Part shown: positions 6,826-56,222 of the stretch, piece by piece
Layout of the letters: each line of letters begins with the position of its first letter
How positions within the stretch are numbered: the first letter of the stretch is position 1
DNA from: an uncultured Clostridia bacterium
GTDB lineage: Bacteria; Bacillota; Clostridia; Christensenellales; UBA1242
Direction: 5' to 3'
DNA length: 64,000 nucleotides
NCBI GenBank assembly: GCA_944381185.1
Contig: CALWKE010000002.1
Location: forward strand, 217,731 to 281,730
The notes under the pieces: model-generated
Databases searched by the model: none
Told to the model about the DNA's origin: nothing
Seen by the model: only the letters and a program-made list of their open reading frames with translations
Program-made: the position numbers and the translations under genes

Positions 6826-6828
6826 ACT

Positions 6829-12914: not shown

Positions 12915-12916
12915 AT

Positions 12917-13939: not shown

Positions 13940-13941
13940 AA

Positions 13942-15902: not shown

Positions 15903-15904
15903 TG

Positions 15905-19984: not shown

Positions 19985-20147
19985 ACTTATCTTTTATCCT
20001 TTTCATTGAATTAAATAAATTTTTAAAACATGTTTCACATAGATATGAATCACCTTTAAAACTATTTGTTTCTAAACGATATTTTGCTTTTTTATTGCAC
20101 ATTATAGTATCGCATTTAGTAATAAAAATTGGTGTACTAATTTTCAT
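19968..20147 (-). CDS. Small (59 aa) Cys4 zinc-ribbon-like protein, not in the ORF track
   Basis: My translation is MKISTPIFITKCDTIMCNKKAKYRLETNSFKGDSYLCETCFKNLFNSMKRIKDKYETEK. GGAG lies 7 nt upstream of ATG 20147. Cys spacing is C-x4-C-x19-C-x2-C. The ORF overlaps the portal start by 17 nt. Confidence 0.45.
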   Translation of the reverse strand: MKISTPIFITKCDTIMCNKKAKYRLETNSFKGDSYLCETCFKNLFNSMKRIKDKYETEK

Positions 20148-20577
20148 TTGATATCTCCGATATTAGTTTATTTTTTAAATTAATCAATTCTTCATTAGAC
20201 ATGTTTTCTATATCATTAATATCTATCTCCTTCCTAAAAATTTCAAATAGAATTTTAATAGCAAGCATATCAGGCGGAATATAATGCGTGGTAATTTTCT
20301 TTTTAACGAGAGTAAGGTTTTCATTGGTTTGCTTAAAGTTTTCTGGTTTTCCATTTGATACTTCAATGATATCACTAGATTTATAAATATCAGTATTACC
20401 CCTGTCAATTTTATCAAAAAAACTTATATTTTCGCATTTTTGATTATCTTTTTTAGAATTATCTGCTAATTTTTGCGTTTTTTCATATTCTAATAATTCT
20501 TCATTATAGAAGAATCCAGAAGCTTTTTTTATAAGAATTTTAATTAAATCGTTTTCATTAAATTTGCTTTTGCTCAT
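20137..20577 (-). CDS. Hypothetical phage protein
   Basis: 146 aa, start overlaps the TerL stop. No motif recognised. Confidence 0.4.
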   Translation of the reverse strand: MSKSKFNENDLIKILIKKASGFFYNEELLEYEKTQKLADNSKKDNQKCENISFFDKIDRGNTDIYKSSDIIEVSNGKPENFKQTNENLTLVKKKITTHYIPPDMLAIKILFEIFRKEIDINDIENMSNEELINLKNKLISEISNEN

Positions 20578-22007: not shown

Positions 22008-22081
22008 TAAAGTTATTTGAGATGCTAAAATTAGACAAAAATCGCATTTTTTATTAAAAATAATTGAAATATAATATCAAT

Positions 22082-23056
22082 ATGAAAAAAATTTTGATAT
22101 TTTTATCTATTTTAGTTTTGTTTGTAAATGTTAAATTTTGCAATAAAAATGTTTTTGCCACAGCTGAAAATGCTAAATATGCAAAGGCACTTGCAAACTG
22201 CAAATTATATTTGACAGATGATTTAACAGACTCAATTGACAATGTTAAATTTATAATTCCAGAATCATATTTTGTTTTAATTATTGGTCAAATTAATGAT
22301 AATTGCTATTATGTTCAATATGATAAGTTTGTTGGTTATGTTGAATCATCAACAATTACATTAGCAACTTTTATTCCTGAAAATAAAACACTTACAGACA
22401 TTACATGTGAAATTAAATCGTCATCAGGAACGCAAATTTGGTCAAAACCTTCAGTTGCTAGTGGTGAAGTTCTTTCAACAATATCAGCAGGCACAAAAAA
22501 TATTAATTATATTGCATCAATTTATGGTGAAATACCATCAGGTGGTGAAACTAATCTTTGGTATTTTGTTTCATATACTCCGATAACAAATCCAACTGAT
22601 GTTTATGAAGGATATATTTATAGCGAAAATACAATAAATTTATCTAACATACCAATTAATAATGAAAGCAATCCTGAATTAAATAATTCTTCAAATTCAA
22701 ACAATAATAATAAAATAATTATTTCATCGTCATTTCAAACAATTATCATAGCAATAATAGCAATTCCTATTATTTTATTAATTTCAATTATTTTGTATAA
22801 ATTGATAAAAAAATTGCAAGAAAATACAAATAAAAGAAATTTTCAAAATGAAAAATATGAAAAATTAAATTTAAATGCAATTAATTATTATAATCATGAA
22901 GATGAAAGAAAGATAAACTTAAAATCACAAATTGATAATCTTTCACGCAAATCATTTATTCGTAAGAAGCGTCACACATTAACAAATGTTTCACCTATCA
23001 GTCAAAAAAATTATCCTGAATTTCCGAATTATGATTCTGAAGATGATTTATTATGA
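22082..23056 (+). CDS. Membrane protein: signal peptide, two SH3b-like domains, one TM helix, then a Lys/Asn-rich cytoplasmic tail
   Basis: The track start at 22064 is a TTG. ATG 22082 gives MKKILIFLSILVLFVNV. SH3b-like pattern: CKLYLTDDL..FVLIIGQINDNCYYVQYDKFVGYVESSTI plus a second copy ending YEGYIYSENT. TM helix IIIAIIAIPIILLISIILY. Confidence 0.65.
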   Translation: MKKILIFLSILVLFVNVKFCNKNVFATAENAKYAKALANCKLYLTDDLTDSIDNVKFIIPESYFVLIIGQINDNCYYVQYDKFVGYVESSTITLATFIPENKTLTDITCEIKSSSGTQIWSKPSVASGEVLSTISAGTKNINYIASIYGEIPSGGETNLWYFVSYTPITNPTDVYEGYIYSENTINLSNIPINNESNPELNNSSNSNNNNKIIISSSFQTIIIAIIAIPIILLISIILYKLIKKLQENTNKRNFQNEKYEKLNLNAINYYNHEDERKINLKSQIDNLSRKSFIRKKRHTLTNVSPISQKNYPEFPNYDSEDDLL

Positions 23057-23725
23057 AACAGATTTTTGCACTGCTTCATTTTCGGTAACATATGTTTTTG
23101 AATGATTATTATTTTTATATTGATAGTTTGCATTTTTAAAGTAGTCACTTACAATTTTTATAAATTTTTCTTTTAACCAAGTTTCTTGCTTTATTTGGCT
23201 TTCTATAAATCGAAGTGACCAATTTTTTGAAATTGCTCTGCTGTGAATCAAATTTATTATTCTGTCAATTTTTCGATATATTGTTCTAGCAGAAATATTA
23301 AATTCTTTTGAAAGATCTTCAGTTGACCAATTATAAACAAATCTTTTTTCAATAAAATTTAAATCTTCATCTGAAAGGTTTTTAACAAGTTCTTTTGTCA
23401 TAATATAGATGTTTAAAAGAGAGTTTTTTCTCTGTGACAAATCAATCAACGATTCAACTTGATTAATAAGTGAATTACTTCCATTAAAAACATCTGACGA
23501 AAATGAAACAGTTGATGCTTGAAGCTCGATAATTTTATCTACGGTTTTTATAATTTCAGGTATAGTGTTATAAGAAGCAAGAAGTGTTTTAATCCAAAAT
23601 TTAAATTTTGTGTCATCATCCATTTCAGATAAAAAATTTTTTATTAGTTGTTTTTTTGTTTGTTTTGAAATTTTATCTAACTTAAAATTTTTTATGTTAG
23701 ATTTGATTTTAGCCTTTGTATCCAT
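23051..23725 (-). CDS. Sigma-70 region-4-like HTH transcription regulator (candidate Xpf/ArpU/RinA-type late activator)
   Basis: 224 aa. LSDEDLNFIEKRFVYNWSTEDLSKEFNISARTIYRKIDRIINLI resembles a sigma region 4.2 HTH. The gene is co-oriented with the phage operon and divergent from the giant ORF. Confidence 0.55.
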   Translation of the reverse strand: MDTKAKIKSNIKNFKLDKISKQTKKQLIKNFLSEMDDDTKFKFWIKTLLASYNTIPEIIKTVDKIIELQASTVSFSSDVFNGSNSLINQVESLIDLSQRKNSLLNIYIMTKELVKNLSDEDLNFIEKRFVYNWSTEDLSKEFNISARTIYRKIDRIINLIHSRAISKNWSLRFIESQIKQETWLKEKFIKIVSDYFKNANYQYKNNNHSKTYVTENEAVQKSVS

Positions 23726-24059
23726 TTTTACTCTCCTTAAAGTAACATAACATAATGCTTATAACGCATCACAATCACATTTTAATATAAAAATTTTTAA
23801 TAAAATGCTTACCCCTGACAGGATTTTTATAAAAATTTTTAAATATGTGCAAATTGACTAAAAATTTTTTTTATTTAGTTTTATAAAAATTTTGTTATAA
23901 AACTATTACAGCTAAATTTGTGAATGATTTTTATAAAATCAAATAAGTTTTTAAGTTATACGAATAGTTATTTTTTTAGAACATTAAAAATCCGCGTAAA
24001 ATACTATTTTATTTTAATAACAATGGTAAAAATTTGTGCTTTTTTGCATAAATTTTAGT

Positions 24060-24087
24060 TTGCTTATTCGACTAAATATGTTAAAAT
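24060..24087 (+). promoter_or_regulatory. Candidate extended -10 promoter for the giant ORF
   Basis: TTGCTT (24060..24065), 16-nt spacer, TGtTAAAAT (-10 at 24082..24087). The RBS AAAGGTAGGA precedes ATG 24153. Confidence 0.3.
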
Positions 24088-24152
24088 TAGTTAGTAAAGT
24101 ATATAAGTTATTTTATAATAAATGAAACAAACTAATAAAAGGTAGGATTCGT

Positions 24153-27100
24153 ATGAAAAAACTTGCAAAAAGTAACTCAAAAAGAATATTAAGCAAACTT
24201 GCAAAATCTATTTCACTTTGTCTTTTAGCATTTGTGTCAATTTTCTTTGTTGCCTGCGGTCAAACATCATCAGCAAAAGAATCAGGTTTTGATGCTAATG
24301 GAAGGTATAGACTTAATGCACCAAATATAATTCATTATAACCAAACATCTGATGGAACATACAATGAATACACAGGTTCATTTTTGGTTCCTATGGAATT
24401 TTATAATGGTAATGATTATAAAAGTCAAACCAGTGGGCTTGATGCTTTTAATCTGGAAAATTTCTTAAAAAATTATGACCAAGTTGGAAATTGGGCTATA
24501 AGTGAAAATGATGGAACTCGCCTTTCATCAACTGACTTACTTTACCCAGATTATACTTTTTGGGTTGATGGAATAATTTATCAAGTTCATGTTAGTGTTA
24601 ATTTATCACAACTTGAAATTGTTAGAACCGCTGGAGGGTCTGCAAATAGTTACTTTAACGCAACAAACTATGTGTCAGCATTAGATGATTTGTCAAATAT
24701 ATTTAAATTTTCTTACAGAGTTGGAACCTCTGGCGTTTGGCAAGACGCAGATGGTTTTATTTCAGCTGTATATTTAAAAGTTAATGATGCAACAAACACT
24801 ACCGATGTTATTTCTGGAAAATTAGGAAATCAAGACGACTCTTATGACAAAGTTTTTTATATGGCGTTTAATCCTATTCTTCAAAATGGAAATACAACGA
24901 GAAGAATTAGAGTTAAAGCTACTCCTAATGCAAATATATCTTCTGACTTATCAGCAGTTGGAAGTTCTGCTAGTGTTGAATATAAAAATCGTGGAGATTC
25001 AATTTATTCACAAACAATTGTTTACAAAGCATATAAAATGTCATTTGAATCATATTCTCCAAATAGTGCTTATTTAGATTATGGTCAATTGTCTTATGAT
25101 AAAAATAAATTCTTCTTTTATGATGAACAAACAACATTTTCGCTTTCAACAAATAAGTATTACTTAACAAAAATAGATGGATACTTCCCTGAAGGAAGAA
25201 TTGTTGAAGTAAATCGAGAATTTGATAATGATGCAAATGGTGATGATTATGCCCTTCAATCTTGGACAGCAAATAGAAAGGGACAAACAACACTTGTTAC
25301 ACAAGAAACAATTTTAAATGGAATCAATTTTGATTTATTTGAAGACTATGACAGAGGATATCATTCATTATTTGGAACAACTTTAAATGAAAAATACTTT
25401 GCAATAAAGTCATTTATTAATGATAGTGATGTTTATTCAAATGGCTCATCTTACACTACATTTGAAAATATTACTATTTCAAATGACCAATCAACAAGAA
25501 CAGGAACAGTTTATGTTGTTTCAAAAAGCGATTATAACAACTACACATTTTATGCGAATTTTATTAAAATAAATAATTTTGTTCTTAAAGGAACATTATT
25601 TGATGCTGAAAAGATTTTGAATGTTGAAAATGCTAAACTTGAAAATGTTAGTTATCAAATTTATAATAAAGATGGAGTTGCCTACCCTGACAAATCAGGT
25701 ACAACAGCAGACTATACTTTTGAATTTACTGGTCTTGCTTATGGTGACTATGTTGTGTTTACAAAAGAAGATAACACAGATCCAGACAACCCTATTAGTT
25801 ATAAATTTTACGGAAATGATATATCGGGGTTAACTGTAGCTGGAGATTCAGAATTTAATGTTTTAAAGAACTATGTTACTCGTGAAACAAAATTAACAGC
25901 AATTGTTGTTACAGAAATTTACAACAATGTTGTTAGTTATGTTGACCCAGATAGTATGTCTTTTGTTTTTAATAATCGTTCATACTATGTTGATGAAAAC
26001 ACAGTTTATGATAGCAATGGAAACGAATGCACAAACTTTTCTGTTGAATATATCTATAAGGTTTTAGACTTAACAAATGTTTCTGTTCTTGCAACAAAAT
26101 ACGATGATGATACTTCCCTAGTTGTAAATGTTTATGCTCTTAATAATGGAGACCTCATTGACCCTACAGAGCAAGGAATATCTTATGAAGTAATAAAATC
26201 TGTAACCTCTCATGTTGACCAACTTGGTTTTGTTAAAACTACTGTTTATGTATCGGTTGTTCTTCCAAGTAACGCAACGGTTCAAAGTTATAATGTTATA
26301 ACAGATAATAGCATAAATATAAATCTTTTCCAAAACAGCAATAACGAATTTAATAAAATTTTAAAAATAGTAACTTTAAAAAATAAAGAGCAAGTAACCA
26401 ATTATTATTATGTTGATATAACAAGTAATTTGAATTCATCACAAGTCACAGTTAGTTCAAATGGTGGCAACTATTTGATTTATAATGATGAATATTTTGC
26501 CTATGCATTTAAAAATGTATATAACAACACTAATTATTACATTTATCAATCATGTGTTTCTGAAAATATGCTGGTTTCATACACATCAGGTTCAACACAA
26601 TTATATGACTTTTTAGATTTAGAAACAATTAATTATTCAACTAACTCATCAGATGCAAATTATCTTGCAGAAACTGCTGGTGGAACAATTTCAACTGGTT
26701 CAATTTATTCTTACATTCTATTCAATGGTTACACATACTTTTTAGCACCATCGGATATGGATATTTCTATTGAAGGTTTAAAATTAACCTCTAACCTTCC
26801 AAATGAAAAATTCGATGTCAATGTTTCTTATGAAAATGAAATTAATTTTGATGAAGAATCAATAATTCAATCTATATTATCTTCTAACAACAGAACTACA
26901 TACACAAAAGATGAAACATTTAATATTTATAGTGGTCGTTTCTCTATTGTTGGAAATTTAGTTGATAAATATTTCTATAATTTAAAAGTTAGTGCTGAAT
27001 ATAAATTAAATGATGCAACTCACACGATAAAAAGTGAGATGGAATCGTTAGACCCAGTTGTATTATCTATCGAACAAGTAAAATTCGAAAATAGTTCAGA

Positions 27101-51100: not shown

Positions 51101-54092
51101 CAATTTTGATATATCAACAAAATGTGGTTTCTTGGTATTCAATTCTGTTGATGGTAGTAATGATTACTATGTTCCATCACTCTATGCAACCACTTCAAAA
51201 TCAGGATTTAGTAGTGAATCAAATGAATATTTTGGTGAAATTTACAAAGACGCTGATGGCAACTTATATGTTAAAAAAGAAAAAACTACTTATCATTTAA
51301 ATAAAACTGGAGAGTCAGACCCTACTCTTACAACAGAATCTAAAGAAATTTACTTTAGAGTTATTAAATATTATGAAACTGACACTTATGCAGAATATAG
51401 TGCAGACTATATTAGTGATTATGTAAACAAATCATCTGATTATGATGATGAATCAACTCCACTTGTAATTTTTGATTCTAAAAACATTTCAACTTATGAA
51501 AGTGCTGAAGGATCTAAATTTAACATTAGTCAAAATAAATTCTACAGCAATGAAATTTTAAATGTAACTGGAAATATTGTTGCTGGAAACAGCAAATATA
51601 TCTACTCTATCTTCTATTTTGATAATGAAGGAAACTTTGTTTATGATGGATATGCACACCATGTAACAACAAAAGAAATTTCTGAATCAACAACTGGTTC
51701 TATACCTTATATGGTTTACAACCAAACAGTAACAATTGACGGCGTTGATTACATATTTGCAGTATCTGCATCAACTGCACTGGGAACATATAATCCAGAC
51801 ACAAATAACACAAACTGGTGGGTTCAATACACAACTGCTTATATTGACACGGTTATTTCAAATTACACATTGAATGGTGGTGATTCAAATTCATCTAACC
51901 CATACAAACAAGCTTATGAAAATATTATGAGAACAATAATATTGACATCTGAATATGATTCTAATTTAGCAACAAATCGCACTAATAATATCTCTAGCAC
52001 AAATATTAATAACTACATTGAAAATTATTCAAAATTTGTTGATATTTCTAGAGGTTCAAGTGGTGATGTTGTTAAATTGAAAGAAAATTTATTCACAATT
52101 TCAATTGATGGAAATGAATATGATAGTTCAAGTTTCAGAAGTGACAGAACAACAATAACTTCATCAGATTCTGATAATCCATTTATGCAAGGTGAATTTT
52201 ATGGAACTTTACATTATAAATATGTTACATCAGCAGATGGTGTTCTTCAGATAATTTTATATGCTGAATTACGCATTCCATATAATTCAAATGGTCAACC
52301 ACCTATTGTAACAATTACTGGACATGATAATAAGATTGCTAATGGTGAAGACCCTAATTATAACCTGTCTTATGTCGGTGCAACTGTTAATTATAATAAT
52401 GTATATGAAGACCATAACCTTAACCTATCAGAAACAGATACAAACTATAAGCCACTTTCTGTTACAGAAAGGTTTGCGACAAGATATGATAACTACACCT
52501 CTGGTGTTGGAGTTGACTCATATTACATTAGCCAACCTCAAGATGTAACTGGATTCTTCCAAGAAATCTATACTGGCGGTTATTCAAATTCAAACACAGC
52601 TGAAATTCCTAATCTTAATGTTACTGTTAATTTGGTGTATAGACATCAAATAAAACAAATTTTAGCAAATGTAACAATAGATGAAAACGAATCTATGGTT
52701 GGTGAAGATTATATGACAAATAATAATAATCAAACAACCATAAGTCTTTTGAATAACAGTTCATATAGTTTCTTATCAAACAATTCAAATTGGCAGAAAT
52801 TATATAGCAAAAATCTTTTAAATGAACAAGTTTTAGCAGAATCTCCAGTAAATGATGATTTGATTGATTTATTAGGAAATAAAGGTAAGAAGAATCCTGA
52901 TCCAAATCAAATCAGAATGAATGGTTGGATGATTGAGCAATATAGTGTTTATGTTATTCCAAACGCATATCTAGTTCTTGATATGATTGATTCAATTATT
53001 CATGATAAGAGATATGCAAGTCGTGCATCAGTTAAAAAAGAGGCAACAATGTATCAAGCATACATTTTAACTTATGACCCTGAATGCTACTCTCAAAATC
53101 AATATCTGTTTAGTGAAGATTCTAAATATACTTATAAAGAATTATTTGAATTTTTAACACTCTATTACAGAGATGATGATGGCAATACGAACATTAACTT
53201 GCCAAGTCCAAATCAAGTAAAGAGCTTTATGAAAGTTAGAAAAATTGACTTCTTCACAACAGCAAGGCGTGGTGTTTACTCTAACTTTACCGGCAACTAC
53301 TTCACTCAAAATGACTTGCTTGTGACATCAACAATTTTAAAGCCAAAATATCAAGAAGCACTTGAATACGATACGCGAATTATATGGCTTATTGAAAATT
53401 ATGGTGGTTCTCGTCCTTATAGTTATTATGATAATGCAACAGCATCAATTGACTATTCAGGGCAAAATAATACTGGTAAAATCAATATGTCACCTGCAAC
53501 AATAGGAAACAAATATTTAACTGATAGCATTTCTCAAGGTTTGATATTCCAATTCTATAGGTTGCAATCAGACTTGACTAGTGACAAGTTGGCAACTATT
53601 GGTGCGGTATCACTTCTATCTCCAGATGAATTTTCAACTGGCGGAGGGTCAAGTGGTTCGCAACAAATTAACTATATAACATCAAATGTTGAAATTAATG
53701 CATTCATGTTATATGACGAAAATAACGACTACGATTCTAAAGATAACTATAAAAACAGAGCTGTTATTGAAGAATTTTGTTTCATAAGAACATATGCATC
53801 TGATATTATTGATGTCGGTTCAAAAATTGGTGCAGGACTTGCAATAGCTGTTTCAATACTTGTCTCTGGTGGTACGGCGACAGCAATTTGGGCTACTATC
53901 GGTGGTGTTTTATTAGTCGGTGGTAATGTCGTATCTAATTTAGGACAAGGTCAAGAAGCCATAATTAGTGGATTATTCCAATTACTTCCTGACACTGTGT
54001 TAAATGGTATTTCTGGTGATGATTTTGAAAAACAACTAGAATATCTTTATAACCAAGGTGCGGGCACCGAATGCTTACTGCATCAGACATGA
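24153..54092 (+). CDS. Giant (9,979 aa) predicted cell-surface protein with an N-terminal lipoprotein-type signal peptide, divergent Listeria-Bacteroides (Flg_new)-like beta modules and a C-terminal hydrophobic anchor
   Basis: One open frame of 29,940 nt. The other five frames over the same interval give no ORF above 107 aa in the track. Strong RBS. N-terminus is MKKLAKSNSKRILSKLAKSISLCLLAFVSIFFVAC|GQ. The C-terminus contains IGAGLAIAVSILVSGGTATAIWATIGGVLLVGG. A terminator follows the TGA stop. Confidence 0.9.
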   Translation: MKKLAKSNSKRILSKLAKSISLCLLAFVSIFFVACGQTSSAKESGFDANGRYRLNAPNIIHYNQTSDGTYNEYTGSFLVPMEFYNGNDYKSQTSGLDAFNLENFLKNYDQVGNWAISENDGTRLSSTDLLYPDYTFWVDGIIYQVHVSVNLSQLEIVRTAGGSANSYFNATNYVSALDDLSNIFKFSYRVGTSGVWQDADGFISAVYLKVNDATNTTDVISGKLGNQDDSYDKVFYMAFNPILQNGNTTRRIRVKATPNANISSDLSAVGSSASVEYKNRGDSIYSQTIVYKAYKMSFESYSPNSAYLDYGQLSYDKNKFFFYDEQTTFSLSTNKYYLTKIDGYFPEGRIVEVNREFDNDANGDDYALQSWTANRKGQTTLVTQETILNGINFDLFEDYDRGYHSLFGTTLNEKYFAIKSFINDSDVYSNGSSYTTFENITISNDQSTRTGTVYVVSKSDYNNYTFYANFIKINNFVLKGTLFDAEKILNVENAKLENVSYQIYNKDGVAYPDKSGTTADYTFEFTGLAYGDYVVFTKEDNTDPDNPISYKFYGNDISGLTVAGDSEFNVLKNYVTRETKLTAIVVTEIYNNVVSYVDPDSMSFVFNNRSYYVDENTVYDSNGNECTNFSVEYIYKVLDLTNVSVLATKYDDDTSLVVNVYALNNGDLIDPTEQGISYEVIKSVTSHVDQLGFVKTTVYVSVVLPSNATVQSYNVITDNSININLFQNSNNEFNKILKIVTLKNKEQVTNYYYVDITSNLNSSQVTVSSNGGNYLIYNDEYFAYAFKNVYNNTNYYIYQSCVSENMLVSYTSGSTQLYDFLDLETINYSTNSSDANYLAETAGGTISTGSIYSYILFNGYTYFLAPSDMDISIEGLKLTSNLPNEKFDVNVSYENEINFDEESIIQSILSSNNRTTYTKDETFNIYSGRFSIVGNLVDKYFYNLKVSAEYKLNDATHTIKSEMESLDPVVLSIEQVKFENSSEQTTYFTFYYDGVKYYYFSGKVYSQYDQYGETHFYGEISPDSNGFYEEFDYAKAAIDPSTQTVVFSKPVFTYLNRTYYLKIETTIDGKTVYTLHSDFFCTSDPIDFVSAYGYKNYSITGSNTSFSLTLVRYSVSIQSSLISNTYYINPESEYIFTNFECTQILDSGDDKYEIDLDNSKFILYNTYRTMVKFNVSGSTNYNGTYYFIDSSLVLFEKVNENYNSIKKFVYYGVSIDATNKKLSANFGTTLITKVTTINNGSFNINISNGEIEITSDTSIVDAKNAYQTVNKYFGSSNTSITATAYPTDMELSAFLIGDDYYYINEKSNELTIYAESNFTEGKILADKMLWTISEDLQSIQNIRYFSTKLGRVFESDDETYTLYDLYSDAVTSDNYKLDEIFVKIGNKSDILDSRVAYANKITLFGNSFYYESKTYYINPDEFQEGKVATIYSDEECTTKVDDIELFYNDQFTLIQITQNAETNAISLAQSIYIHDVYSIKETNVDTNRYEITLGNPTSNSPLNPTMSINGFNVDYKQDYTAKSKESICYAYYDIDSYTHLNEATNNHETQYFLTTPIAKNSVKIDENGNDITTLLFYYGVSNFDELRNNGSIVLGNEILRSTGHTAFKNAIGAKIDNSCYYYVNELGDPSTVYVYQEKTNHSNGQIVYSETEYYDEHGNLYEGEVYIKQSVFYTALFKSNSETISEMSNSETNIVDNYELKFKRTTSTGDLMYQVEYNGKVYYFSETTSPTIGDRYDLYTANVKTENGKSTDSGYDVTIIDSSTARLNYQSFTPGATSGYLTDQNGNVYNFNSSITAGDQGGNYSIVSNLDQKQDPIVELPGGAYDNFNSIIYQIRDNDTYYYQNNVVYSMVDEPLNKIRFVLNYTLYICYDSTSAVVPVNLYVINTVDNSSTGTYDGYCYIEDGKTVNAGQTVTIIKPLKDSAGKQIKFSDLYTALISGQKSIDMQFLYGSYRDDAQIYYYDANSTYYLLNGGIYYKYDEKSSSFVAATGEVNPGRLTRVNSKQNVGFSFYYNNKYYYADAVDGNVYEVDALDGHRSNKINSTYKYDTSSQTIYLSDGTTIFAKFNYSNNTVVIDGVTYPAVKSVYDYFTEKVYYLNNNSKLYKATTFDNSNSASYKFEDSDLVTEFNYIYISTDNTFEFRPAARYFVFANYKLTAITRDNATEGSDSFELIQAINSNGYATHIPSNRIITQSTVQYTNQSEYYKEPEFENKLERKIKSNVVEGGNSTHYVSGGLENSDLITLLGKFSISDSTGAVVTYPSYSILIPTTTGSAITDEDSYYPVDNTISSNATEGFPGVTMIDGVPYINQMFVFDVYHKQGMPAEVDLSILINSGYYVELISSIVEKENSQIITDFSTVTFRDTLANLNGNDYLDNMYYIVDSINYGTIAGYRLARNVSDNLTHVNYTTYYNEYRDDSSQYAYIFMYLNEYLELSAEERNSYYGLIYDHINYYQLYTSAVRITDCAMNSELSDSFIYYSDTTQIGDNGSTIYVDHIYRLVNGAFSELIDEECAIWESSSSKLTDIPYYDIHTYYQDEEGMIYLTSDIVSENQNAICEGLSGLELGATSSSSADVNYDNVIVAGLTTAFKVKTEDLQTSPTNNSFQGYWLDKAISVMNGSESANVYLECSTESVVLLASPLITFDGEIYYRLKQWKVYSRENSEYLMINNDAMAIIGDELYSPILRFTSNASGYYLFLPVYERVYSISLATEVQDGSINVGGSVSIESSSPSVSIDEDDYQDQTYFIDYLKPSDENYYYSSIETNTFLYFTGHFNSEGRPLFKQLGLSDDYSNSSSKSYMLFYYNESITTRYKLATFVGQNMISCEDVDVLSGVLKEGKSGLIRVTNNNGQYRFSQNYSYEQTLSTVNVFYDSYSFRPYVYNGEQCYIYSSNSNYNYYTITEILSYSMSTERVEEEINTTYKFRVVLQNNSFYIISDATYKNIIANSSITIDGLLTSQNKIANLVVLNFNVARQSSDDNYRQPYYSNASNNLNSGELYADENGNVYSTLQYKTNYYDRDSEILLKATAKTGYRLEGWYLATFDETYGWQVSENDITSEISTNYSDEIIKTEFANSSYVTTYTLSKKRYLPNGQTTNMTYSISSNVYIDVLFSDDMSEVPSSVVSNYAGIFANLGSSRTSPYFVQVYSKNGSTTDLYYDAEFTKPLKLTDFSVRVASFNDLWTNNYIGYMNFYDAVMTNYTYEGTTVKTDFQQLSNGDYISQSIKYTFNSQEVYAIYRYNDRTFSYDISYYRNYENGNYYVDENNVLHITNLHSNIRIVAKFIEIYKAFVFNEAEEESGISVEALYYYNEDDSKTTIRTSASGSNLTSDDIKLDGANNYFGAMALENGNPYRFSLMNDESDTSKTLFSNTESDPSKTYFDTIYNQTSKNNFNALSQLAGGTGSFEKNAYAIYRSDDYMISLRNFYFDSGTTIFLLIRLESGQQLSIHSLGLNQNYVLNFLFEPDMNAVESLNEDIDYVYYILKVTFDKNMEQTNGLTTTMGNQNPEYVLHPEKAMNLTSDVLSGNNIDFYDSYFDTFLKFNTSYSSDINMSETNYLKVVSGSNEFDLKIAYNIVSTAKYAKSFSFSQTMAETLFYWLVKNKNQGLIDLVNDDTLYKKVVQFGSDDVKNYTFNFSDYLTEQSSYQTRYNAIKTYIIEAFKMIYLTQKSNNAGYNFVRAVQTVVDYLDEVGIEIEIKTKAGEEVNYKTLSTINYYLTVSGDLYINQVLIDLILDSIVEVISPNSSLRDNLTIYTANIVAELQYRTYSRLSDFVRDLNQIIYAATYKSEIFSIDYVLYSKTYYEMLSDVETDQVSYENYISSATSTRENNMLNGINKIFYNSIQKFANYSISSSASDAITSVEGGLSLIEPKNIYTYGGPFANGIINYINLSSIKIYTVSVSTSIIDTVNISSDDSLDDQVVVSSDTNFMQNPYYILDDTIYTAGGVSSSLGDLTYIGGAYQEDITSTPVRYNIGYKKYQTFTNKFYHSSDSELYIREGDDINYSSYGDVTFAEYSIILLGGLRIKYGPRGGSANIGSSNPYDDVLTRTSNSETFFSASYKAIYDDYGNLYYVMQNDETREIYIYSNDYSTIYILPTGSINYSSVNSFEDAQEHISKAYHFAGWYLQTFNEDNGMWSNMECVSTDLYRPFVTTATSNINIAAIFAEVTNLKVTYDPETVNVSFETDEDSCGNKTLTTVNPDGTETLSGWFYYSSNPILMVSPLGGFRIANSFDFTYKTMDGDTFSYNVDLKNKEQTDGNNVVTTFDAELFGFLHYNQDTAKIEEANFNDISLTDVSYLQVNFTELMKTFNKDGDELASAFGTFDFTLNTEFIVLTYFVVEGYVESDEITGDDVVKSSIALYSYNNVKNEIDEVFFLTNSGNDVSTLEFNERYPVGKDSANNTIVVELQGSSLIFYGYFDYEKYNSYIDSSNPGNTNEFSLVTGIYHDNSVTTSEEYSAWLTNLTNMITGVNFTGNSLNNSPNTIKNEKVIYFYYGNNQTDAQDINSGANLDQSYHIIHLRATKSVNSILTVEENFYEVKTDGTVDKVDVNPTVPVPIMLIYNTDYYGEIGVNEGALKGNNGQLTFENKFSAQYKFGKNAGDNKNSYLTLSISEDYEYYYDKATDTYYKFVGYYTNSDQIIKKDNTDLIYNFSELPGGTIHAVFIKIMPISIYVTSGGSYSIEIKNNTLLTSGFWKDTIGNSIEGTSGISLDIGTANRYFSTETNSVITDKSFNYVIYGSNVTISPLATDGYAISSVTVDNNLITDENNYTTKIEYYDQTHTFQYIYSNAHIVTIKQYQLSSLSESAIAELYNDKSLAKLFVKQIDFNDADFLNSLIFDRYTNANIDKVNMKLSLADGADFYIYFFAPSTMQFVGFYKNGVLIAGSKDITPLKSITIGGETYTVYELRFSEVNNGKGAISDLSLEVRFSSIVTFETIIDGLTPDNSGEYPYDNILDDSQMEVVLDDDKNIIEYVISKTSNGNQTLGLNTNKTNPISISSGDVIDYNIFTVPNAEYSFVNYFFYKKYEATRLSSSATNNVWYSVNYEGQTYFFREDLTDLYETMDEENGVPTGDRVGVNATLDESGKYVLVESIISYNSDTNITINSIMIDNILDGQPLRIYAKFAQVVKLTFTKSVNPHNDDKNFYESPETNEEFLNYFNALIVYTNPNGNETTATLSDGLSTTITLAKSSTVRVYPYIAPQVENRYITTDTIYISTENTSRAEFKAVDGVFTIYTNASLNSYTDLSTTLQFYSAYTITINKTINGEGMDDNITNANKSNDMIHMINLSSLAEYSDGSLPVSDTHYLTSYDLIYEDIRNTTSITKLAYHNADSYTLTYPISRSSSSGTYYTTQTLSTSLMSGTNISNLVFYGWYLNGYLYSTNSTITLPLNNFMQLSTETDGYIIIYNNNSNENVISSVVPLSYDSSQGNYSFIFNDTTYRISKGTDLENFTGKIEAGGISFEYVYMASDNITFTASYGTFTKVSYTTNPIQEDGNILVNSTLSGNLLGITTSNEAITGSVGNYYIYDDTAYYNILANSKLQDSIANLGDYKLSAAVQSYTLKEDSLNNPNNSVYALTGSNLLITGGHLIGYRVIRYEFTGKRLVIRSTLNGDGQIVYTYSTEDIGNRSVSVLSGDNSMGYINLGTNEILTEIKVTVVFEEVYQVSTTVSTLDSYDDNNVSSSTSTNGGSIEVYSYNSQSSIDVNDGTFYSNTYDMLSITPKANDGYTFVGLFLDGQYLGEDQLGYDTYARTEPIILDLKNLGFAGDDCKSILLEARFAKNIKFTIRLAIEDTNLRDTIYNLYGISDRNSDLFDIKITLSSIYSNIVYGASGDVPLTEEELTKSIWDYMPVKVNVGDTYDTTENYYFEDGTPYSRDDDDGYWDEYGKATPTNPLYTHDDEFLYIEFTVAYGTHVEFEVASEDPQIQFNNNVRTYHFNGWYLYNRNQISLSNSVIDYSTVLDLYATQDYYGSTIEIIAKYDLDDVSETISTTKEIEIIDEANANLDIDINSINTSNYENGILTLNGKEYMFAGWWQVVADSTRPSTYILISNDFFDELPTVNYLVARFVRLMPITITLPEESSGYVQTRLNYRYFYTFNDVNDNRIQNYITENNNLVLHYNVPIDTYFNNTNIFAYTGHYFTITDSIKTDNYVSYIVSSSDRVNNTIGERQDVESLNYIEHNGNIYYINNNTLYNKVSAEDGSIRFYNVDSTGAETNLTIEQLDPTINSYTIRGNQVTIYYGTNNSVSRTIVAANYVIYNNNVYFVVGSNLYSSVKATDESVISSIDINGTTIYYLILNNVVIFSTDNNSNIGLSGTSIEIESINKAGFKYEVESDYDVLSVIDGGYTISYIVTTIEDDGSYGVTDSVAGGRFVSQSINTVGGTESTSKYVYSSNFPILNLRLSPSTGYTFIGLYINGEYVENSYNTLSLSINLSDYSSDIVVEAKFAKNISIEYRLSVDNSDSKSFIYQELGLTDLAIEGLINNIYSSINASYTLGDEIYSSSININDINIEDNEVSLIFIVTVPYGTRLTFGINSNLHEVQASNGTPYYFYGWYLYENNDISQSNSLVTSGGSFTIYAIDDGESTLQFVAKYLKSENTSPIYTTANIEVYSYVDDQLMIQSVSYNEFINTYGDLQLRKTINGKEYLFAGWWQVINDRTKILVSNNPTDQELISNCIGRYIELKTITIDYSEQSSISISGNLHQSFSYAQSTTISSPILSADIDVGNSDLIITTTIFSAFTNVVIRAHNGFYFRNENDVYDATEVTGLEFKLHGENYSDLFTVSNNTSEIADVYIRYSRVYSDENQFLTNVENSNPNDEVVVAIQNNNNTFRVSIVAENISTTINDANRENASSSIFVVMNGISQNNLNQNQFLDSTIQSIYIEDRIIYIYNNALYKNLLSLKIYKERFDDVYYITQNNVNYYIEFDSYGNFLKLTDSDGKDVSLNVITGYSTNVALITPDKYTLYIYTNKATNDEYNLKTTVTSDTVSCDIEYTNSNNIKATETFMIANNVVDRYYTRYTHLVVTLSKEYYTESFLGFRIIYDSGITTFYSAKVYGYSLSLIVNESVTISAQFEEAINDPNSAASNNGSSSGGNQGTEQGAPSDKPEYGDGDDQTGEIVTIETTNTSSIQYLHEIQLNISGTRLNFVYDYSSNSFEVSGNNEFGISVAGIANTSVSDDLGQIFYRNATISIPLSVYESNTITFDIITYNIYTLNVSVSQNDSSTVSSGGNNEYIAEIDILYPHDYMENQNAGNRTEFINNIKLYMYLSSIISTKDCDIISGIKLSDTMTENGFIDGFYAFETNVQLQDGVTTGAKLTGTTADGEGKYDGNVVLIQTDIYNYSLVYNFRTQGTIRIYIHPQYFTGSGYDANRTSSLILGIAEEDLIKDIIIVGNPDNQDITVGELTFDPNYKRQPSANSATGSWYVDITYYFSEPISIYFKSTYLSFSNYYYYNNGQTTPENVTQLSKDPYPLYSNNSALSISYDEYLSLRKSSQNGDMVILNCVASESIKSTTVKFEYEKANLKLTVEINGKNYIYNSNNGIFTCSATTGQTTYNTQQVELVNEIDSNDTISLTVQSFYDSSNAKYPFNIKFIYGHELVSNGARFNVELIDFEAKYQYSGLEGPNDPIVKVKDFGTYLLGFKNAYCENASQLITVSTTPGLVEPEFTFQLGENFADSNEIIIETNRYYYILYMKDYTYMNGDYGVPTIELNVTEPGVGSNKYVPLATHGTDGGRKHTFALYAYVLDGSAVEVIAGAPDESDTEHLVYGILYRENFNTLTESVLIETLLDGDINNYIYSQNNNGAIMDASVPSAIIKSETAGFTSISNLTSSTTKYIYIPESSRAYIADYYGIEGVASDIKLVGIIAPGNSSEYKYGSNPILNISSHTNGYNFIIEQSTYGSEVIFIQEVDDKYKYSQKEILEQNGNIYIDADDDEAVNSLTYTRFETTQITVYLLNNSVSQYSYLVSSSYNSNGLTTGFYKQLVLPPINEGKEMDFIVKDTIESYIEDTSVTESTFNNSVYYTIGINGSMQIAEKYENGKVYFIRSDKDLIIHGITLHYGGKDYYITNTGIYDDPSFEKEYNPAEKSIFIQPNYDDYSVKIYHFTYTFKLNGQNYTYDGKDVKDSNGNIVQGASVDFTGIPILTIGTASDIATSISIDPSATETISLIDKEEYNEIQNELQENANNPDYEDTHKYVYKLIKVRIVESEYIEYTLNDEENALIELEDGNSVSSDIVISYETKERRGVYYVEINGTIYYINNVTLYKDFECTIPVENDELDNYIVYYKEMYIDKNATPLEVKEDASGYHFGTGDAIYDFDIVTGDLTADSLKPSKPDPNYPDDPTKVINLTYRFDSPIVKIDSNKYNTVKEDIYVDQFNVGGVNYYINNLKLYSDYPFIDANKYVPNSDNPNTISSYHIFPEFIRYDSVRYTKVNDNPSDYNAIQYQSDSGETITLNESTGVVTKIIDGVSTDITSNVKFSNSKVVRYKLYVENADGSVTESSSEQIINSGKDYIIDIINSEATGSFSSTYTDVTITKLQANAYDGYYIKGFVIFSDAELAKDRNMWLHYELDTTTANGLAGLQGLDTYSSFKYMNYIPIEYQTYQSDVNDAYELIKDENGNIVSVALNINLKLNGSFKIYAVYAPVIYSVSFNILNVQEIISKDGVINYNDIYNRFLISDNLEETTAGYIKGQMLAEHGGNAWIRAFANQGSEFIGLSLAYSSMTEQIQSIYSNLTIDNNLSVDEVINSGILDAGDEGLDDDKLNLYKAQGVNAPYEENGTKKYYFLSEKNMYYDIYGNPENPDDTNYVNSGNINATSSTDKINSLFLFNITDDVTLNFYFKSIEYTLDIVIGESNSGYYDSDNDAGTNSNGVDNASGSDSFLSYGEDVINGTNENGESWKNPTNNMVSEALGDLPYTDVISSEGSKVDDASGFYSLDKENPYKFISDTDPLVYTIFDYQGNLISAQWKDANGAITERVNPSAILSSTINFDISTKCGFLVFNSVDGSNDYYVPSLYATTSKSGFSSESNEYFGEIYKDADGNLYVKKEKTTYHLNKTGESDPTLTTESKEIYFRVIKYYETDTYAEYSADYISDYVNKSSDYDDESTPLVIFDSKNISTYESAEGSKFNISQNKFYSNEILNVTGNIVAGNSKYIYSIFYFDNEGNFVYDGYAHHVTTKEISESTTGSIPYMVYNQTVTIDGVDYIFAVSASTALGTYNPDTNNTNWWVQYTTAYIDTVISNYTLNGGDSNSSNPYKQAYENIMRTIILTSEYDSNLATNRTNNISSTNINNYIENYSKFVDISRGSSGDVVKLKENLFTISIDGNEYDSSSFRSDRTTITSSDSDNPFMQGEFYGTLHYKYVTSADGVLQIILYAELRIPYNSNGQPPIVTITGHDNKIANGEDPNYNLSYVGATVNYNNVYEDHNLNLSETDTNYKPLSVTERFATRYDNYTSGVGVDSYYISQPQDVTGFFQEIYTGGYSNSNTAEIPNLNVTVNLVYRHQIKQILANVTIDENESMVGEDYMTNNNNQTTISLLNNSSYSFLSNNSNWQKLYSKNLLNEQVLAESPVNDDLIDLLGNKGKKNPDPNQIRMNGWMIEQYSVYVIPNAYLVLDMIDSIIHDKRYASRASVKKEATMYQAYILTYDPECYSQNQYLFSEDSKYTYKELFEFLTLYYRDDDGNTNINLPSPNQVKSFMKVRKIDFFTTARRGVYSNFTGNYFTQNDLLVTSTILKPKYQEALEYDTRIIWLIENYGGSRPYSYYDNATASIDYSGQNNTGKINMSPATIGNKYLTDSISQGLIFQFYRLQSDLTSDKLATIGAVSLLSPDEFSTGGGSSGSQQINYITSNVEINAFMLYDENNDYDSKDNYKNRAVIEEFCFIRTYASDIIDVGSKIGAGLAIAVSILVSGGTATAIWATIGGVLLVGGNVVSNLGQGQEAIISGLFQLLPDTVLNGISGDDFEKQLEYLYNQGAGTECLLHQT
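41090..42380 (+). repeat. Copy A of a divergent tandem module of about 430 aa inside the giant ORF
   Basis: Colinear with copy B. Shared anchors are GYTFVGLFLDG, EARFAKNI, YHFNGWYLYN, IIAKY and NGKEYMFAGWWQV. A 37-nt stretch from 42207 is identical at 36 of 37 positions to the stretch from 44061. Confidence 0.8.
43130..44220 (+). repeat. Copy B of the divergent tandem module
   Basis: Anchors GYTFIGLYING, EAKFAKNI, YYFYGWYLYEN, FVAKY and NGKEYLFAGWWQV occur in the same order as in copy A. The anchor offsets are in frame (2004 nt and 1854 nt). Confidence 0.8.
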
Positions 54093-54101
54093 TGAAAAAT
54101 A

Positions 54102-54138
54102 AAAAACCAATTTAATATTGGTTTTTTATTTTTTTTAT
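54102..54138 (+). terminator. Intrinsic terminator after the giant ORF
   Basis: AAAAACCAAT-ttaat-ATTGGTTTTT (10 bp) followed by a long T-run, starting 10 nt after the stop codon. Confidence 0.8.
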
Positions 54139-54172
54139 TTGTATTTAAAATTAAATTTGCTATAATAAATAT

Positions 54173-56206
54173 ATGAAGAAATATTGCATTAAATTAACTA
54201 AAATATTCACTTTAGCGTTATTTGCGTTCCTTTTATCATTCAGTTTGATAAATAATTTTACTATAAAATTTGATAAAACTTTAACGAAATCAAACGCATC
54301 ATCAATATCTGCAGATTTTAGCATTTTTATCAGCAATGCCACCTACTCTACTTTTTATAACAATAAAATTTATTTTATTGATAGTTATGATAATTTGCTA
54401 AAAATTTATGACACTAACAATAAAAAATTTTTAAATGAATATCTTGATTTAACAGAATATGAAGAAATTGTTGACGCCACCTATTTAGATGGAAATATAT
54501 TTTTATATTCATCACTAAATCAATTAGTAATAATTAATTTAAATGATTTGTCAATAAAAACTATATCTAATGAATTATTAACAAATAGCTTAAGCAAAAT
54601 ATCTGTTACAAAAATAAATGATGAAGATTTGCAAAAATTTGCTATAACCCTTTCCCCTGATATAATAAATGAACAAGTTTCACCAGTTGTTATGTTGATT
54701 GATGAAACATCTTTAGAGTTATCTGAAATATGTAAAATTAATTTAGTTTCAAATGATTTTGATGATATTAAAACAAGTCTTATAAAAATATTTGTTTTAA
54801 ATTCTCAAACCGTTGATAATGAAATTAATATTATGTTTTTTTACGGAAGTAATGTAGCCTTTGCATCACTTTCAATTAACTCATTAAAAAACAATGAAAC
54901 AATTTCATCGGTAACATTAATTTCGGCGCAACTTGATAACACCAATCATAACATAAATATAAAAAATATCAATTTGATGCAAATATCAAATAATTCATAT
55001 TATCTTATAACCTATTCTGACAACTCAAACAATGCTTATTCAAGGCTTTACAGATACAAACTTACAAATAGCATAGAAACAAGTTTTGAGTATTTATCTC
55101 AAATAGAAACCTCAAACACTAAATATGTTTTAACTTCAAATGAATATGTAATTTTTCCAAATGATAACCAATCAATAACCTATGTAAAAATAGAATATGA
55201 TGATGAAAATGAAATTATTTCTAATATTAACACAACAATAACAAACCCAATTGTTACACCTGAATATTTTGAAGAAGAAAATTTTGTTTATATGCAAACA
55301 AATAAAAACACAAAACTACTTTCTTCTCCTTGGGATTTCGACGAAATAATTATTATAAATGAAAATATTGATATAATAAACATTGGAAAAGGCAAAATTG
55401 AAAGCGAAAATTCAGTCATTGAAGACTTTTTGTATTGTTTATACACATTTGATGGCGTCAATTATAAAGGTTACATTAAAACCGAAGATTTGACTGAAAA
55501 ACAAATAATACCTGTTGAAAATTATCCTTATCCGGTGTTCAAAACAGTTCCAAACTCAAATCTATACTCCCTGCCAACAAAAGTTTTGGGCGACATGATA
55601 ACAAATGATTTATCATCATCTGTAATTATGCAAATTGAAGCAAATTCAAGAGTTGAAGTTTTAGATGTTATTTGTGGCTACACTTCTCTTGATTCAACAA
55701 TGATAAAAGTAAAAGTAAATAATAACCAAATTGGATATATTGAAACAAATAACATAATTCACCCAAGTGATAAAGTTGATTATGTCATAACAAATTCAGC
55801 AATCAAACAAGATAAAACAAATGTTTATATAAATGCTAATTCAAATAGTGCAATTATTTATACATTAGATAAAGGTTATAGAATAAGAATAAATGCAGTT
55901 CGTGACACAAAAACTGGATACACAAGTATAACTTTTAATGACGAATACGGAAATGAATTTTCTGGTTATATTATCACTGATGTAATTTCAGCAGATAGTT
56001 GGACAACATTGCAAATAGTTGGTTGCATTTTAATAGCAATAAATATTGGCCTTTTAATATTAATTCTGTTATTCAAAAAAGAAAAAATCGGAGGACGAGG
56101 TCAAAAATATACTGCTAGTGAAACCACAAATTACGGCAAAACAAATATTACAAATTCTAATATAAAATCAAATGAATCAAACAACAAAAAAGAAGATGAA
56201 AAGTAA
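54173..56206 (+). CDS. Membrane protein: signal peptide, beta-rich ectodomain, three SH3b-like repeats, TM helix, then a Lys/Asn/Glu-rich tail
   Basis: 677 aa. N-terminal signal IFTLALFAFLLSFSLI. SH3b-like repeats end in YKGYIKTEDL, QIGYIETNNI and FSGYIITDVI. TM helix LQIVGCILIAINIGLLILILLF. Confidence 0.65.
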   Translation: MKKYCIKLTKIFTLALFAFLLSFSLINNFTIKFDKTLTKSNASSISADFSIFISNATYSTFYNNKIYFIDSYDNLLKIYDTNNKKFLNEYLDLTEYEEIVDATYLDGNIFLYSSLNQLVIINLNDLSIKTISNELLTNSLSKISVTKINDEDLQKFAITLSPDIINEQVSPVVMLIDETSLELSEICKINLVSNDFDDIKTSLIKIFVLNSQTVDNEINIMFFYGSNVAFASLSINSLKNNETISSVTLISAQLDNTNHNINIKNINLMQISNNSYYLITYSDNSNNAYSRLYRYKLTNSIETSFEYLSQIETSNTKYVLTSNEYVIFPNDNQSITYVKIEYDDENEIISNINTTITNPIVTPEYFEEENFVYMQTNKNTKLLSSPWDFDEIIIINENIDIINIGKGKIESENSVIEDFLYCLYTFDGVNYKGYIKTEDLTEKQIIPVENYPYPVFKTVPNSNLYSLPTKVLGDMITNDLSSSVIMQIEANSRVEVLDVICGYTSLDSTMIKVKVNNNQIGYIETNNIIHPSDKVDYVITNSAIKQDKTNVYINANSNSAIIYTLDKGYRIRINAVRDTKTGYTSITFNDEYGNEFSGYIITDVISADSWTTLQIVGCILIAINIGLLILILLFKKEKIGGRGQKYTASETTNYGKTNITNSNIKSNESNNKKEDEK

Positions 56207-56222
56207 TCATCTTCTTTTTTTA
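56191..56222 (+). terminator. Intrinsic terminator overlapping the stop codon of the 677-aa gene
   Basis: AGAAGATGA-aaagtaa-TCATCTTCT (9 bp) followed by T6. Confidence 0.75.

Follow-up and report, generated by a model that had tools for sequence, protein, structure and literature searches.

A phage-derived gene cluster, probably of gene-transfer-agent type, and its regulator and SH3b membrane-protein neighbours beside a giant lipoprotein gene in uncultured gut Clostridia

The DNA considered here, referred to as the window, is a stretch of 64,000 nucleotides from an uncultured Clostridia bacterium (Christensenellales; UBA1242; contig CALWKE010000002.1, positions 217,731 to 281,730). It contains a giant open reading frame (ORF) that lies between genes for two membrane proteins with bacterial SH3 (SH3b) domains, here called A and B, and is transcribed divergently from the gene for a small helix-turn-helix (HTH) regulator; a cluster of phage-like genes adjoins A. 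These genes probably belong to two adjacent units, namely a cluster of the gene transfer agent (GTA) type with the regulator and A as its front end, and an independent gene for a giant lipoprotein. The window has a GC content of about 28%, its sequence matches a metagenome scaffold of 415 kb, and host genes stand on both sides of the locus, RNase J on the left, beyond the phage-like cluster, and NUDIX and aspS on the right, beyond B.

The phage-like cluster occupies about 8.7–22.0 kb on the minus strand and runs from the large terminase (TerL) through a P22-like portal and the major capsid protein to a holin (Table 1). A scan of GTDB species representatives yielded 26 loci, and in these and the other loci collected the order phage-like cluster, A, HTH gene and N-terminus of the giant gene is found wherever the locus is long enough. 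The phage-like genes are the best-conserved part of the locus: across the 26 species the capsid is 69–88% identical, TerL 59–86% and the portal 48–86%, compared with 33–63% for A, 25–77% for the regulator and 26–70% for the giant N-terminus. The ratio of nonsynonymous to synonymous substitution rates (dN/dS) for capsid, portal and TerL lies between 0.06 and 0.19 overall, with dS of at least 1, that is, with saturated synonymous sites. With position and gene order shared by 26 species, and with the low dN/dS at saturated dS indicating strong purifying selection, the cluster has been inherited vertically and maintained by selection and is no chance prophage. Annotation with Pfam and PHROG revealed no integrase, repressor or replication gene in it, and the nearest capsids among GenBank phages, which belong to actinophages, are only about 28% identical. 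The cluster is best read as a domesticated (viriform) element of the GTA type that resembles a short-tailed phage. A capsid-forming phage-inducible chromosomal island was considered and rejected, since genes for integration and replication are lacking and the locus keeps its place across deep divergence.

Roles for the remaining genes of the cluster are suggested largely by their places in it. The 201-aa protein encoded between portal and capsid is taken from this position to be the scaffold, the 146-aa protein is a possible small terminase subunit, and the five conserved genes between capsid and holin are presumed to encode tail, adaptor or fibre proteins. Two of these five (664 and 340 aa) are missing from one close relative (L019) and from the whole of the sister lineage described below, and the cluster in both measures only about 8.5 kb. 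The 349-aa gene downstream of the holin may be the last gene of the cluster and is a candidate for a lysis function.

The discriminating comparison comes from a graded series of relatives recovered by scanning IMG/VR with the capsid alignment, which were annotated with hidden Markov models (HMMs) of A, B and the HTH protein and with BLAST. A tier of contigs with capsids at 54–63% identity, some short (L055, L060, L063, L064 and L067) and some long (L090, L091, L092, L094 and L095), shows the regulator gene converging with A, followed by TerL. The HTH homologues are recognised at HMM E-values of 1e-18 to 1e-27 and the A homologues, of 244–265 aa, at 1e-32 to 1e-36; no giant gene stands beside the regulator in this tier. 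In the five long contigs the order runs from holin through capsid and portal to TerL, A and the HTH gene, and continues with genes for an SSB-like protein and a polysaccharide deacetylase, a sigG-like gene, spoIIGA and sigE, and neither B nor any piece of a giant gene occurs within 10 kb. This sister-lineage cluster, 8.5 kb from TerL to holin, lies between host genes, and the A family of the lineage amounts to 254 homologue clusters. As A and the HTH gene are kept with the phage-like cluster in a lineage that has no giant gene beside it, they travel with that cluster, and both are most likely in the service of the phage-like element rather than of the giant gene. More distant, true-phage-like relatives, with capsids at most 48% identical and a different TerL, carry neither A nor the HTH gene.

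One contig of this tier, L055 (13 kb), has a complete B-family gene of 615 aa divergent from the regulator, in the place taken by the giant gene in the window; its product combines propeller-like repeats, three SH3b domains and a transmembrane (TM) helix (hhalign probability 98.6%, E 5e-16). Two side observations concern the sister lineage. Its cluster adjoins the sporulation genes spoIIGA, sigE and the sigG-like gene in conserved order (at about 11.4–15.8 kb of each long contig), and a link between particle production and sporulation is conceivable. The portal gene of L094 is broken up into two separate ORFs (216 and 381 aa, 6133–7989), which may reflect a frameshift or local decay.

The regulator gene shares the strand of the phage-like cluster, stands shortly before its operon for terminase and morphogenesis, and converges with A with an overlap of 6 bp, and A thus stands antisense between regulator and TerL, an arrangement found at all loci of both lineages; the gap from the start of TerL, on the strand opposite to A, to A itself is 56–75 bp. 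The regulator of the window gives sub-threshold matches to sigma region 4, the HTH by which sigma factors read the -35 element. In Pfam and NCBIfam searches of 27 orthologues, TIGR02937 matches 25, Sigma70_r4_2 matches 20, and the RinA model TIGR01636 matches 11 (best E 3e-7), the window regulator not being one of the latter. The window protein does match the PHROG family phrog_36, annotated as a transcriptional regulator, at 3.6e-7, and a PDB profile search with the regulator returned YlxM and region 4 of SigF, while the homologue in L055 exceeds the Pfam cut-offs for both Sigma70_r4_2 (28.6 bits; cut-off 25.7) and DUF1492 (26.5 bits; cut-off 21.5). Sigma region 2, by which sigma factors contact core RNA polymerase and the -10 element, was not detected, with no Sigma70_r2 among the family matches of the 27 orthologues and TIGR02937 aligning over model positions 85–161 of 165 only; the true sigma factors of the same loci do show region 2. 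The N-terminal part of the protein is a conserved helical region without family matches. Models of the BotR/TcdR type, describing sigma factors of toxin genes, match 2 of the 27 orthologues, a weak resemblance, and no relative of the regulator was found among GenBank phages. The idea that the HTH protein is the small terminase was rejected, its matches being transcription factors and not terminases.

RinA/ArpU proteins of phages and Xpf of the Bacillus subtilis element PBSX are activators of late genes. The regulator resembles RinA/ArpU (TIGR01636, DUF1492) and Xpf in being a small protein with a sigma-region-4-like HTH encoded immediately upstream of a terminase operon and on the same strand, and differs from them in its greater length (224 aa), its additional conserved N-terminal helical region and the antisense gene that precedes the terminase. 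As a separate observation, a complete sigma factor of 229 aa with regions 2 and 4, unrelated to the 224-aa regulator, is encoded at 4200–4889; genes for a U32 peptidase, an O-methyltransferase and RNase J stand between it and the cluster.

Protein A has the plan of a type-I membrane protein, with a predicted signal peptide, SH3b domains at about residues 30–95 and 108–185, a TM helix at about 216–240 and a cytoplasmic tail. In an AlphaFold model built from a 44-sequence alignment, the ectodomain (residues 30–190) has a predicted local distance difference test (pLDDT) score of about 96 and consists of two beta modules that are followed by the TM helix. Its best Foldseek matches are tandem bacterial SH3 modules, namely those of the T. 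vaginalis NlpC/P60 protein 6biq, a YrvJ model and the endolysin of phage phiSM101 (4krt), at E-values of 6e-5 to 7e-4 and probability 1.0, and fold searches also show a resemblance to the SH3b wall-binding modules of phage endolysins. Pfam SH3_3 matches 17 of the 44 members of the A family at E-values of 0.01 or less (best 1.5e-6) and gives no match for A of the window. The two repeats end in G85-YVES and G177-YIYS, with the glycines invariant in the family alignment, and the tail (residues 311–324, at about 23012–23053 of the window) ends in YPxFPxYDSDDDLL-COOH, which is strongly conserved within the window lineage. More than 145 homologues of A are known, every one from metagenome-assembled genomes of uncultured Clostridia. 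Peptidoglycan binding is the usual activity of SH3b domains, and by analogy A is expected to bind peptidoglycan. A and B share their tandem fold with the SH3b modules found in Gram-positive endolysins and autolysins (Psm of phiSM101, 4krt; PlyB- and PBC5-type enzymes; B. subtilis YrvJ; NlpC/P60, 6biq); unlike those enzymes, they lack a catalytic domain, would be exported by the Sec pathway and carry a C-terminal TM helix and cytoplasmic tail, to which B adds a beta-propeller. A classical anti-sigma factor was also considered as an identity for A and rejected on the grounds of wrong topology, lack of co-transcription and a tail that differs between lineages.

In the model of B (mean pLDDT 83), an N-terminal helix that is either signal or anchor is followed by a beta-propeller at residues 56–360 with WD40/BamB-like fold matches, three SH3b domains at 372–607, a TM helix at 612–638 and a short tail. 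Pfam SH3_3 scores 26.3 bits on B, just under the cut-off of 27, and several homologues of B have a precomputed PF08239 assignment; the repeats end in G433-YIKT, G521-YIET and G598-YIIT, and these glycines too are invariant in the family alignment. The B family consists of 18 homologue clusters and two loci and is, L055 excepted, so far confined to the giant-bearing lineage. At 7 of 7 loci B stands directly after the giant gene and before NUDIX, with B identities down to 36%, and in every neighbourhood examined the gene upstream of B encodes 9.4–10k aa. A scan of JGI metagenomes with B added two short loci and no more, and scans of IMG/VR with the regulator, A and B alignments returned same-lineage copies or nothing. 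Since B resembles A in its architecture and its leaderless promoter, and stands beside the regulator without a giant gene in one related contig, it is grouped here with A as a putative envelope factor that binds the wall; it may also act together with the giant protein.

These results bear on a description of the locus that had been made from the letters and their ORFs (the original prediction). Its coordinates and strands for A, the regulator, the giant ORF and B hold, as does the AT-rich region of 427 bp and 19% GC from which regulator and giant gene diverge, and the sigma region-4-like HTH that it saw in the 224-aa protein agrees with the TIGR02937 and Sigma70_r4_2 matches of the orthologues. 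For A and B it had proposed an ectodomain, two or three SH3b repeats that end in G-Y-[IV]-x-[ST], one TM helix and a tail; the fold checks and the repeat endings together confirm this observation, since the models of both proteins match tandem SH3b domains in Foldseek (probability 1.0) and all repeats of A and B have this ending with an invariant glycine. The domains of A, B and the regulator were correctly described, and the phage-like cluster adjoining A was overlooked. Co-occurrence in other genomes, on which that description had made its interpretation depend, is found throughout the giant-bearing relatives, with A, regulator and giant gene in this order and B after the giant gene at 7 of 7 loci. 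The 'paralogous architecture' ascribed to A and B is sound as regards the shared architecture, and paralogy is not demonstrated: pairwise BLASTP of A against B gives a non-significant E of 0.078, and comparison of their profiles a weak colinear match of the two SH3b domains and TM helix of A to the last two SH3b domains and TM helix of B (hhalign E 0.0018, probability 15%).

A, the regulator gene, the giant gene and B probably constitute four transcription units, to judge from the promoters of A, the giant gene and B and from the terminator after the giant gene. The starts of A and B (22066–22084 and 54158–54175) are of the leaderless type, without the Shine-Dalgarno sequence that nearly all other genes of the window possess, and this type of start is conserved in the orthologues and in the sister lineage, where the A promoter reads TTGTCA-17-TGTGTTAAAAT-6-ATG. 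In the region between regulator and giant gene, which measures 330–450 bp across loci and 1 kb in L036, an alignment of 23 loci shows the giant promoter core TCGAC-N8-TG-N-TAAAAT in 19 of them, the most distant included, the TCGAC lying within the promoter spacer; a conserved ACCCCTGACA block (23811–23820) and paired GTTAT...ATAAC elements of operator-like appearance are also present. The gap of 80 bp between giant gene and B holds a terminator and then the B promoter, which argues against co-transcription of the two, though some read-through may occur. The terminator was missed by a consensus scan since that scan demands at least three G–C pairs, more than the stem has, and a consensus promoter scan of this DNA of 19–29% GC gave promoter-like counts equal to those of shuffled sequence. 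In a search for a motif common to the TerL–A and regulator–giant regions, window-wide matches to GACAWWWWWNSCAT and to the giant promoter core were at chance level; nGACA is common to all three conserved blocks and equals the ordinary -35 consensus. The giant lipoprotein gene is most likely an independent unit lodged between regulator and B.

The giant protein begins with a lipoprotein signal peptide, the lipobox (FVAC|G in the window) being present in 23 of 23 orthologue N-termini, has a high content of S, N, Y and T and carries a hydrophobic, hairpin-like segment near its C-terminus (residues 9885–9927). BLASTP self-comparison found no significant internal repeats, which is unusual for a protein of such size, and searches of Pfam, NCBIfam and PDB sequences were empty except for one sub-threshold match to Flg_new_2 (InlB-B-repeat). 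The same genome has a second giant gene, whose product measures 11,382 aa (relatives: 11,597 and 9,388 aa); it is found on the opposite strand, some 8 kb past the right-hand end of the window (L001 20259–22034). The C-terminus of its product is unrelated to the first giant protein. An FMN/FAD oxidoreductase gene comes next to it, and no A- or B-like neighbour is present at the end visible in L001, L003 and L006.

Table 1. Features of the locus, in window coordinates.
Feature	Position	Strand	Remarks
RNase J, host gene	6829-8748		Beyond the holin end of the phage-like cluster
349-aa gene downstream of holin	8735-9784	-	No Pfam or PHROG match; also beside the holin in L019 and L046
Holin	9959-10588	-	Phage_holin_1 4.5e-5; phrog_297 4.9e-10
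Five conserved genes (664, 340, 465, 190 and 127 aa)	10920-16288	-	Colinear in all relatives, 25-71% identity
Major capsid protein	16331-17518	-	phrog_14242 3.9e-59; dN/dS 0.08-0.16
201-aa gene, scaffold position	17527-18132	-	Between portal and capsid; position kept in all loci
Portal, P22-like	18125-19984	-	P22_portal 2.1e-10; phrog_156 2.4e-26; dN/dS 0.07-0.19
146-aa gene	20137-20577	-	Between terminase and portal; no family match; position conserved
Large terminase (TerL)	20574-22007	-	First gene of late operon; Terminase_6N, Terminase_6C; phrog_2 1.7e-28; dN/dS 0.06-0.14; likely ATG start at 21998
TerL-A intergenic elements	22032-22081	+	Motif TAGACAAAAATCGCATTTT (22032-22050); -10 box in GAAATATAAT, TATAAT 6 nt before the ATG of A; alignment of 19 close loci
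A	22082-23056	+	324 aa; alternative start 22064
HTH regulator	23051-23725	-	224 aa
Regulator-giant intergenic region	23726-24152		427 bp, 19% GC
Giant-gene promoter	24059-24087	+	Sigma-A-type; TTTGCT (24059-24064), 17 nt, TG-n-TAAAAT; then Shine-Dalgarno AAGGTAGG
Giant ORF	24153-54092	+	9979 aa
Intrinsic terminator after giant gene	54094-54143	+	AT-rich AAAAAACCAAT...ATTGGTTTTTT, T-run; predicted -18.3 kcal/mol; kept in L003, L005 and L006
B promoter	54158-54172	+	Extended -10 TGCTATAAT (TGnTATAAT), 6 nt to ATG; kept in L003, L005 and L006
B	54173-56206	+	677 aa
Hairpin terminator between B and convergent NUDIX gene	56186-56220		Terminator scan and folding

Functions can be proposed for the parts of the locus from the observed folds, synteny, selection and promoter and terminator sequences. 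The HTH protein would act as the late-gene activator of the operon from terminase to holin, as RinA/ArpU does in phages and Xpf in PBSX. A would be made from its own leaderless promoter of the sigma-A type, inserted into the membrane and grip the peptidoglycan by its endolysin-like SH3b module; given membrane insertion and such a module, A may serve a wall-associated step of the element, be it the release, adsorption or uptake of particles or the protection of kin cells. The giant protein would be a surface lipoprotein exported by the Sec pathway and anchored by lipid at its N-terminus, and its gene would be an insertion in this sublineage, or have been lost elsewhere, rather than the centre of the unit. 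A bolder proposal, which we regard as improbable, is that the regulator and the antisense, leaderless SH3b-TM gene form a new control and envelope module of a large family of GTA-like elements in uncultured gut and rumen Clostridia. A (and B where it occurs) would in that case be a wall-spanning receptor or entry factor by which kin cells become receptive to the particles, or else a membrane tether whose cytoplasmic tail restrains the activator, and in the window lineage the regulator would have taken on the further task of linking the display of the giant lipoprotein to particle production.

The original prediction held that the locus could be a single functional unit, in which a giant cargo protein is served by A and B as anchoring or assembly factors and by a dedicated sigma-like regulator. 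The order A, regulator, giant gene and B is indeed invariant in every giant-bearing genome, the regulator diverges from the giant gene across a conserved region with operator-like blocks, A and B have the wall-binding and membrane-seated character to be expected of anchors, and two of the 27 regulator family members have the weak resemblance to BotR-type toxin sigma factors. One unit around the giant gene is nevertheless unlikely, and for two of its three accessory genes, A and the regulator, the idea most likely fails, as the five long sister-lineage contigs and also short ones keep these two genes next to the phage-like cluster with no giant gene at the locus. A B-family gene likewise adjoins the regulator without a giant gene in L055, the giant gene has a housekeeping-type promoter and a terminator of its own, and no gene like A or B adjoins the second giant gene where its end is visible. 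A regulator dedicated to the giant gene fits poorly with the RinA matches of 11 of 27 orthologues, with DUF1492 in L055 and with the sigma-A-type promoter of the giant gene itself. A division that assigns A and the regulator to the phage-like element and makes B the true partner of the giant protein, its propeller for instance holding the membrane-embedded C-terminus and its SH3b domains securing the complex on the wall, is a serious though less probable alternative. It would account for the place of B directly behind the giant gene at all seven loci, despite B identities as low as 36%, for the confinement of this small family (18 clusters and two loci) to the giant-bearing lineage apart from L055, and for the lack of B near the cluster in the five sister-lineage contigs. 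Its difficulties are the terminator and separate promoter between the giant gene and B, the presence of B beside the regulator without a giant gene in L055, and the NUDIX gene, which is equally invariant beside B and so implies that the lineage simply keeps its gene order.

If that tendency is taken to its limit, the neighbours might have nothing to do with one another, A and B being general envelope proteins and the HTH protein regulating genes elsewhere in a small, slowly rearranging genome. Gene order is broadly kept around the locus (NUDIX, aspS, cysS, the oxidoreductase and the second giant gene) and each gene has its own promoter, yet such inherited synteny is an unlikely explanation on its own, since the convergent and overlapping arrangement of regulator and A next to TerL survives between lineages whose other neighbours are wholly different, the regulator matches families of phage late activators, and the SH3b module of A is endolysin-like. 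An ordinary decaying prophage, with A and the regulator as leftover morons, might be suspected from the absence of integrase and replication genes, the split portal of one sister-lineage contig and the listing of these regions as viral contigs in IMG/VR. It is very improbable in view of the same chromosomal position and full gene order with intact ORFs in 26 species, capsids that are 69–88% identical despite saturated synonymous sites with dN/dS of about 0.1, and a second lineage with a conserved position of its own.

The interpretation as a GTA-type cluster with its own front end next to an independent giant gene, which is probably correct, has several points to be set against it. The GTA label is drawn from gene content, fixed chromosomal position and selection, and no endolysin, tail or small-terminase gene is recognisable in the cluster. 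All parts of the locus are adjacent in every giant-bearing genome, and synteny within that lineage cannot for this reason separate the units, and B without a giant gene is seen in a single 13-kb contig, L055. Motif searches tied the regulator to neither the terminase promoter nor the giant promoter. Since the divergent arrangement is kept in all 26 species, the regulator could also act on the giant promoter, with its conserved TCGAC in the spacer. The tail of A is short in the sister lineage, ending in ...KEIIDY, and the DDDLL tail is limited to the window lineage; conserved only there, it suggests that A may have gained a lineage-specific cytoplasmic partner.

Among known elements the closest in description is FpGTA, a podovirus-like GTA of Faecalibacterium with a 10.5-kb operon for terminase, portal, scaffold and capsid and a second operon that includes holin and endolysin (Borodovich et al., Nat Commun 2026, PMC12946183). 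The two have in common their occurrence in gut Clostridia, a compact chromosomal operon (terminase, portal, scaffold, capsid and a few unknowns), proteins of the short-tailed-phage type, a holin, the lack of replication and integration genes and a near-ubiquitous presence in their lineage (PMC12946183). FpGTA differs in having a small terminase gene upstream of TerL and its holin, endolysin and fibre genes at a second locus 125 kb away (PMC12946183), whereas the present element is a single cluster with an antisense SH3b membrane-protein gene upstream of TerL, preceded in turn by the sigma-4-like regulator; neither such a regulator nor an SH3b-TM gene is mentioned in the available part of the FpGTA description (PMC12946183). 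A further point against the favoured interpretation belongs here, namely that the likeness to FpGTA is one of gene content and layout as described.

The giant gene also invites comparison. Proteins of 10,000–30,000 aa with recognisable repeats (Listeria-Bacteroides, YG, dockerin) have been reported as presumed surface proteins in gut Clostridia (West-Roberts et al., 2023, bioRxiv 10.1101/2023.11.21.568195). The giant protein of the window agrees with them in its origin from Clostridia of the mammalian gut, its length of about 10,000 aa and its presumed role in adhesion or at the surface, and differs in having no detectable internal repeats, the sub-threshold InlB-B-repeat match being the only one.

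The pathogenicity locus (PaLoc) of Clostridioides difficile combines the sigma factor TcdR with large toxins and a phage-derived holin, TcdE. As in PaLoc, a small regulator resembling an alternative sigma factor stands in a clostridial genome beside genes for very large proteins and phage-derived lysis genes. Unlike in PaLoc, the giant protein has a lipoprotein signal and its gene a housekeeping-type promoter, and the regulator follows the cluster into genomes without the giant gene. Searches of Pfam, NCBIfam and PDB sequences revealed no toxin domain in the giant protein.

The analysis removes a tempting lead, that of a new secretion or anchoring system for the giant protein, which is probably false, and replaces it with a compact and strongly conserved phage-derived particle cluster that has a regulator and an SH3b membrane protein as its front end and forms a fixed part of the genome in at least two lineages of uncultured Clostridia from the gut, which together amount to hundreds of protein clusters. 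The locus probably existed before the giant 'dark' lipoprotein gene came into it or was lost from it, which bears on the practice of inferring function from neighbouring genes. To our knowledge, it was not until 2026, with FpGTA, that a GTA was demonstrated in a Gram-positive gut anaerobe, and neither regulators nor cell-side factors of such GTAs have been described; the locus described here offers candidate genes for both.

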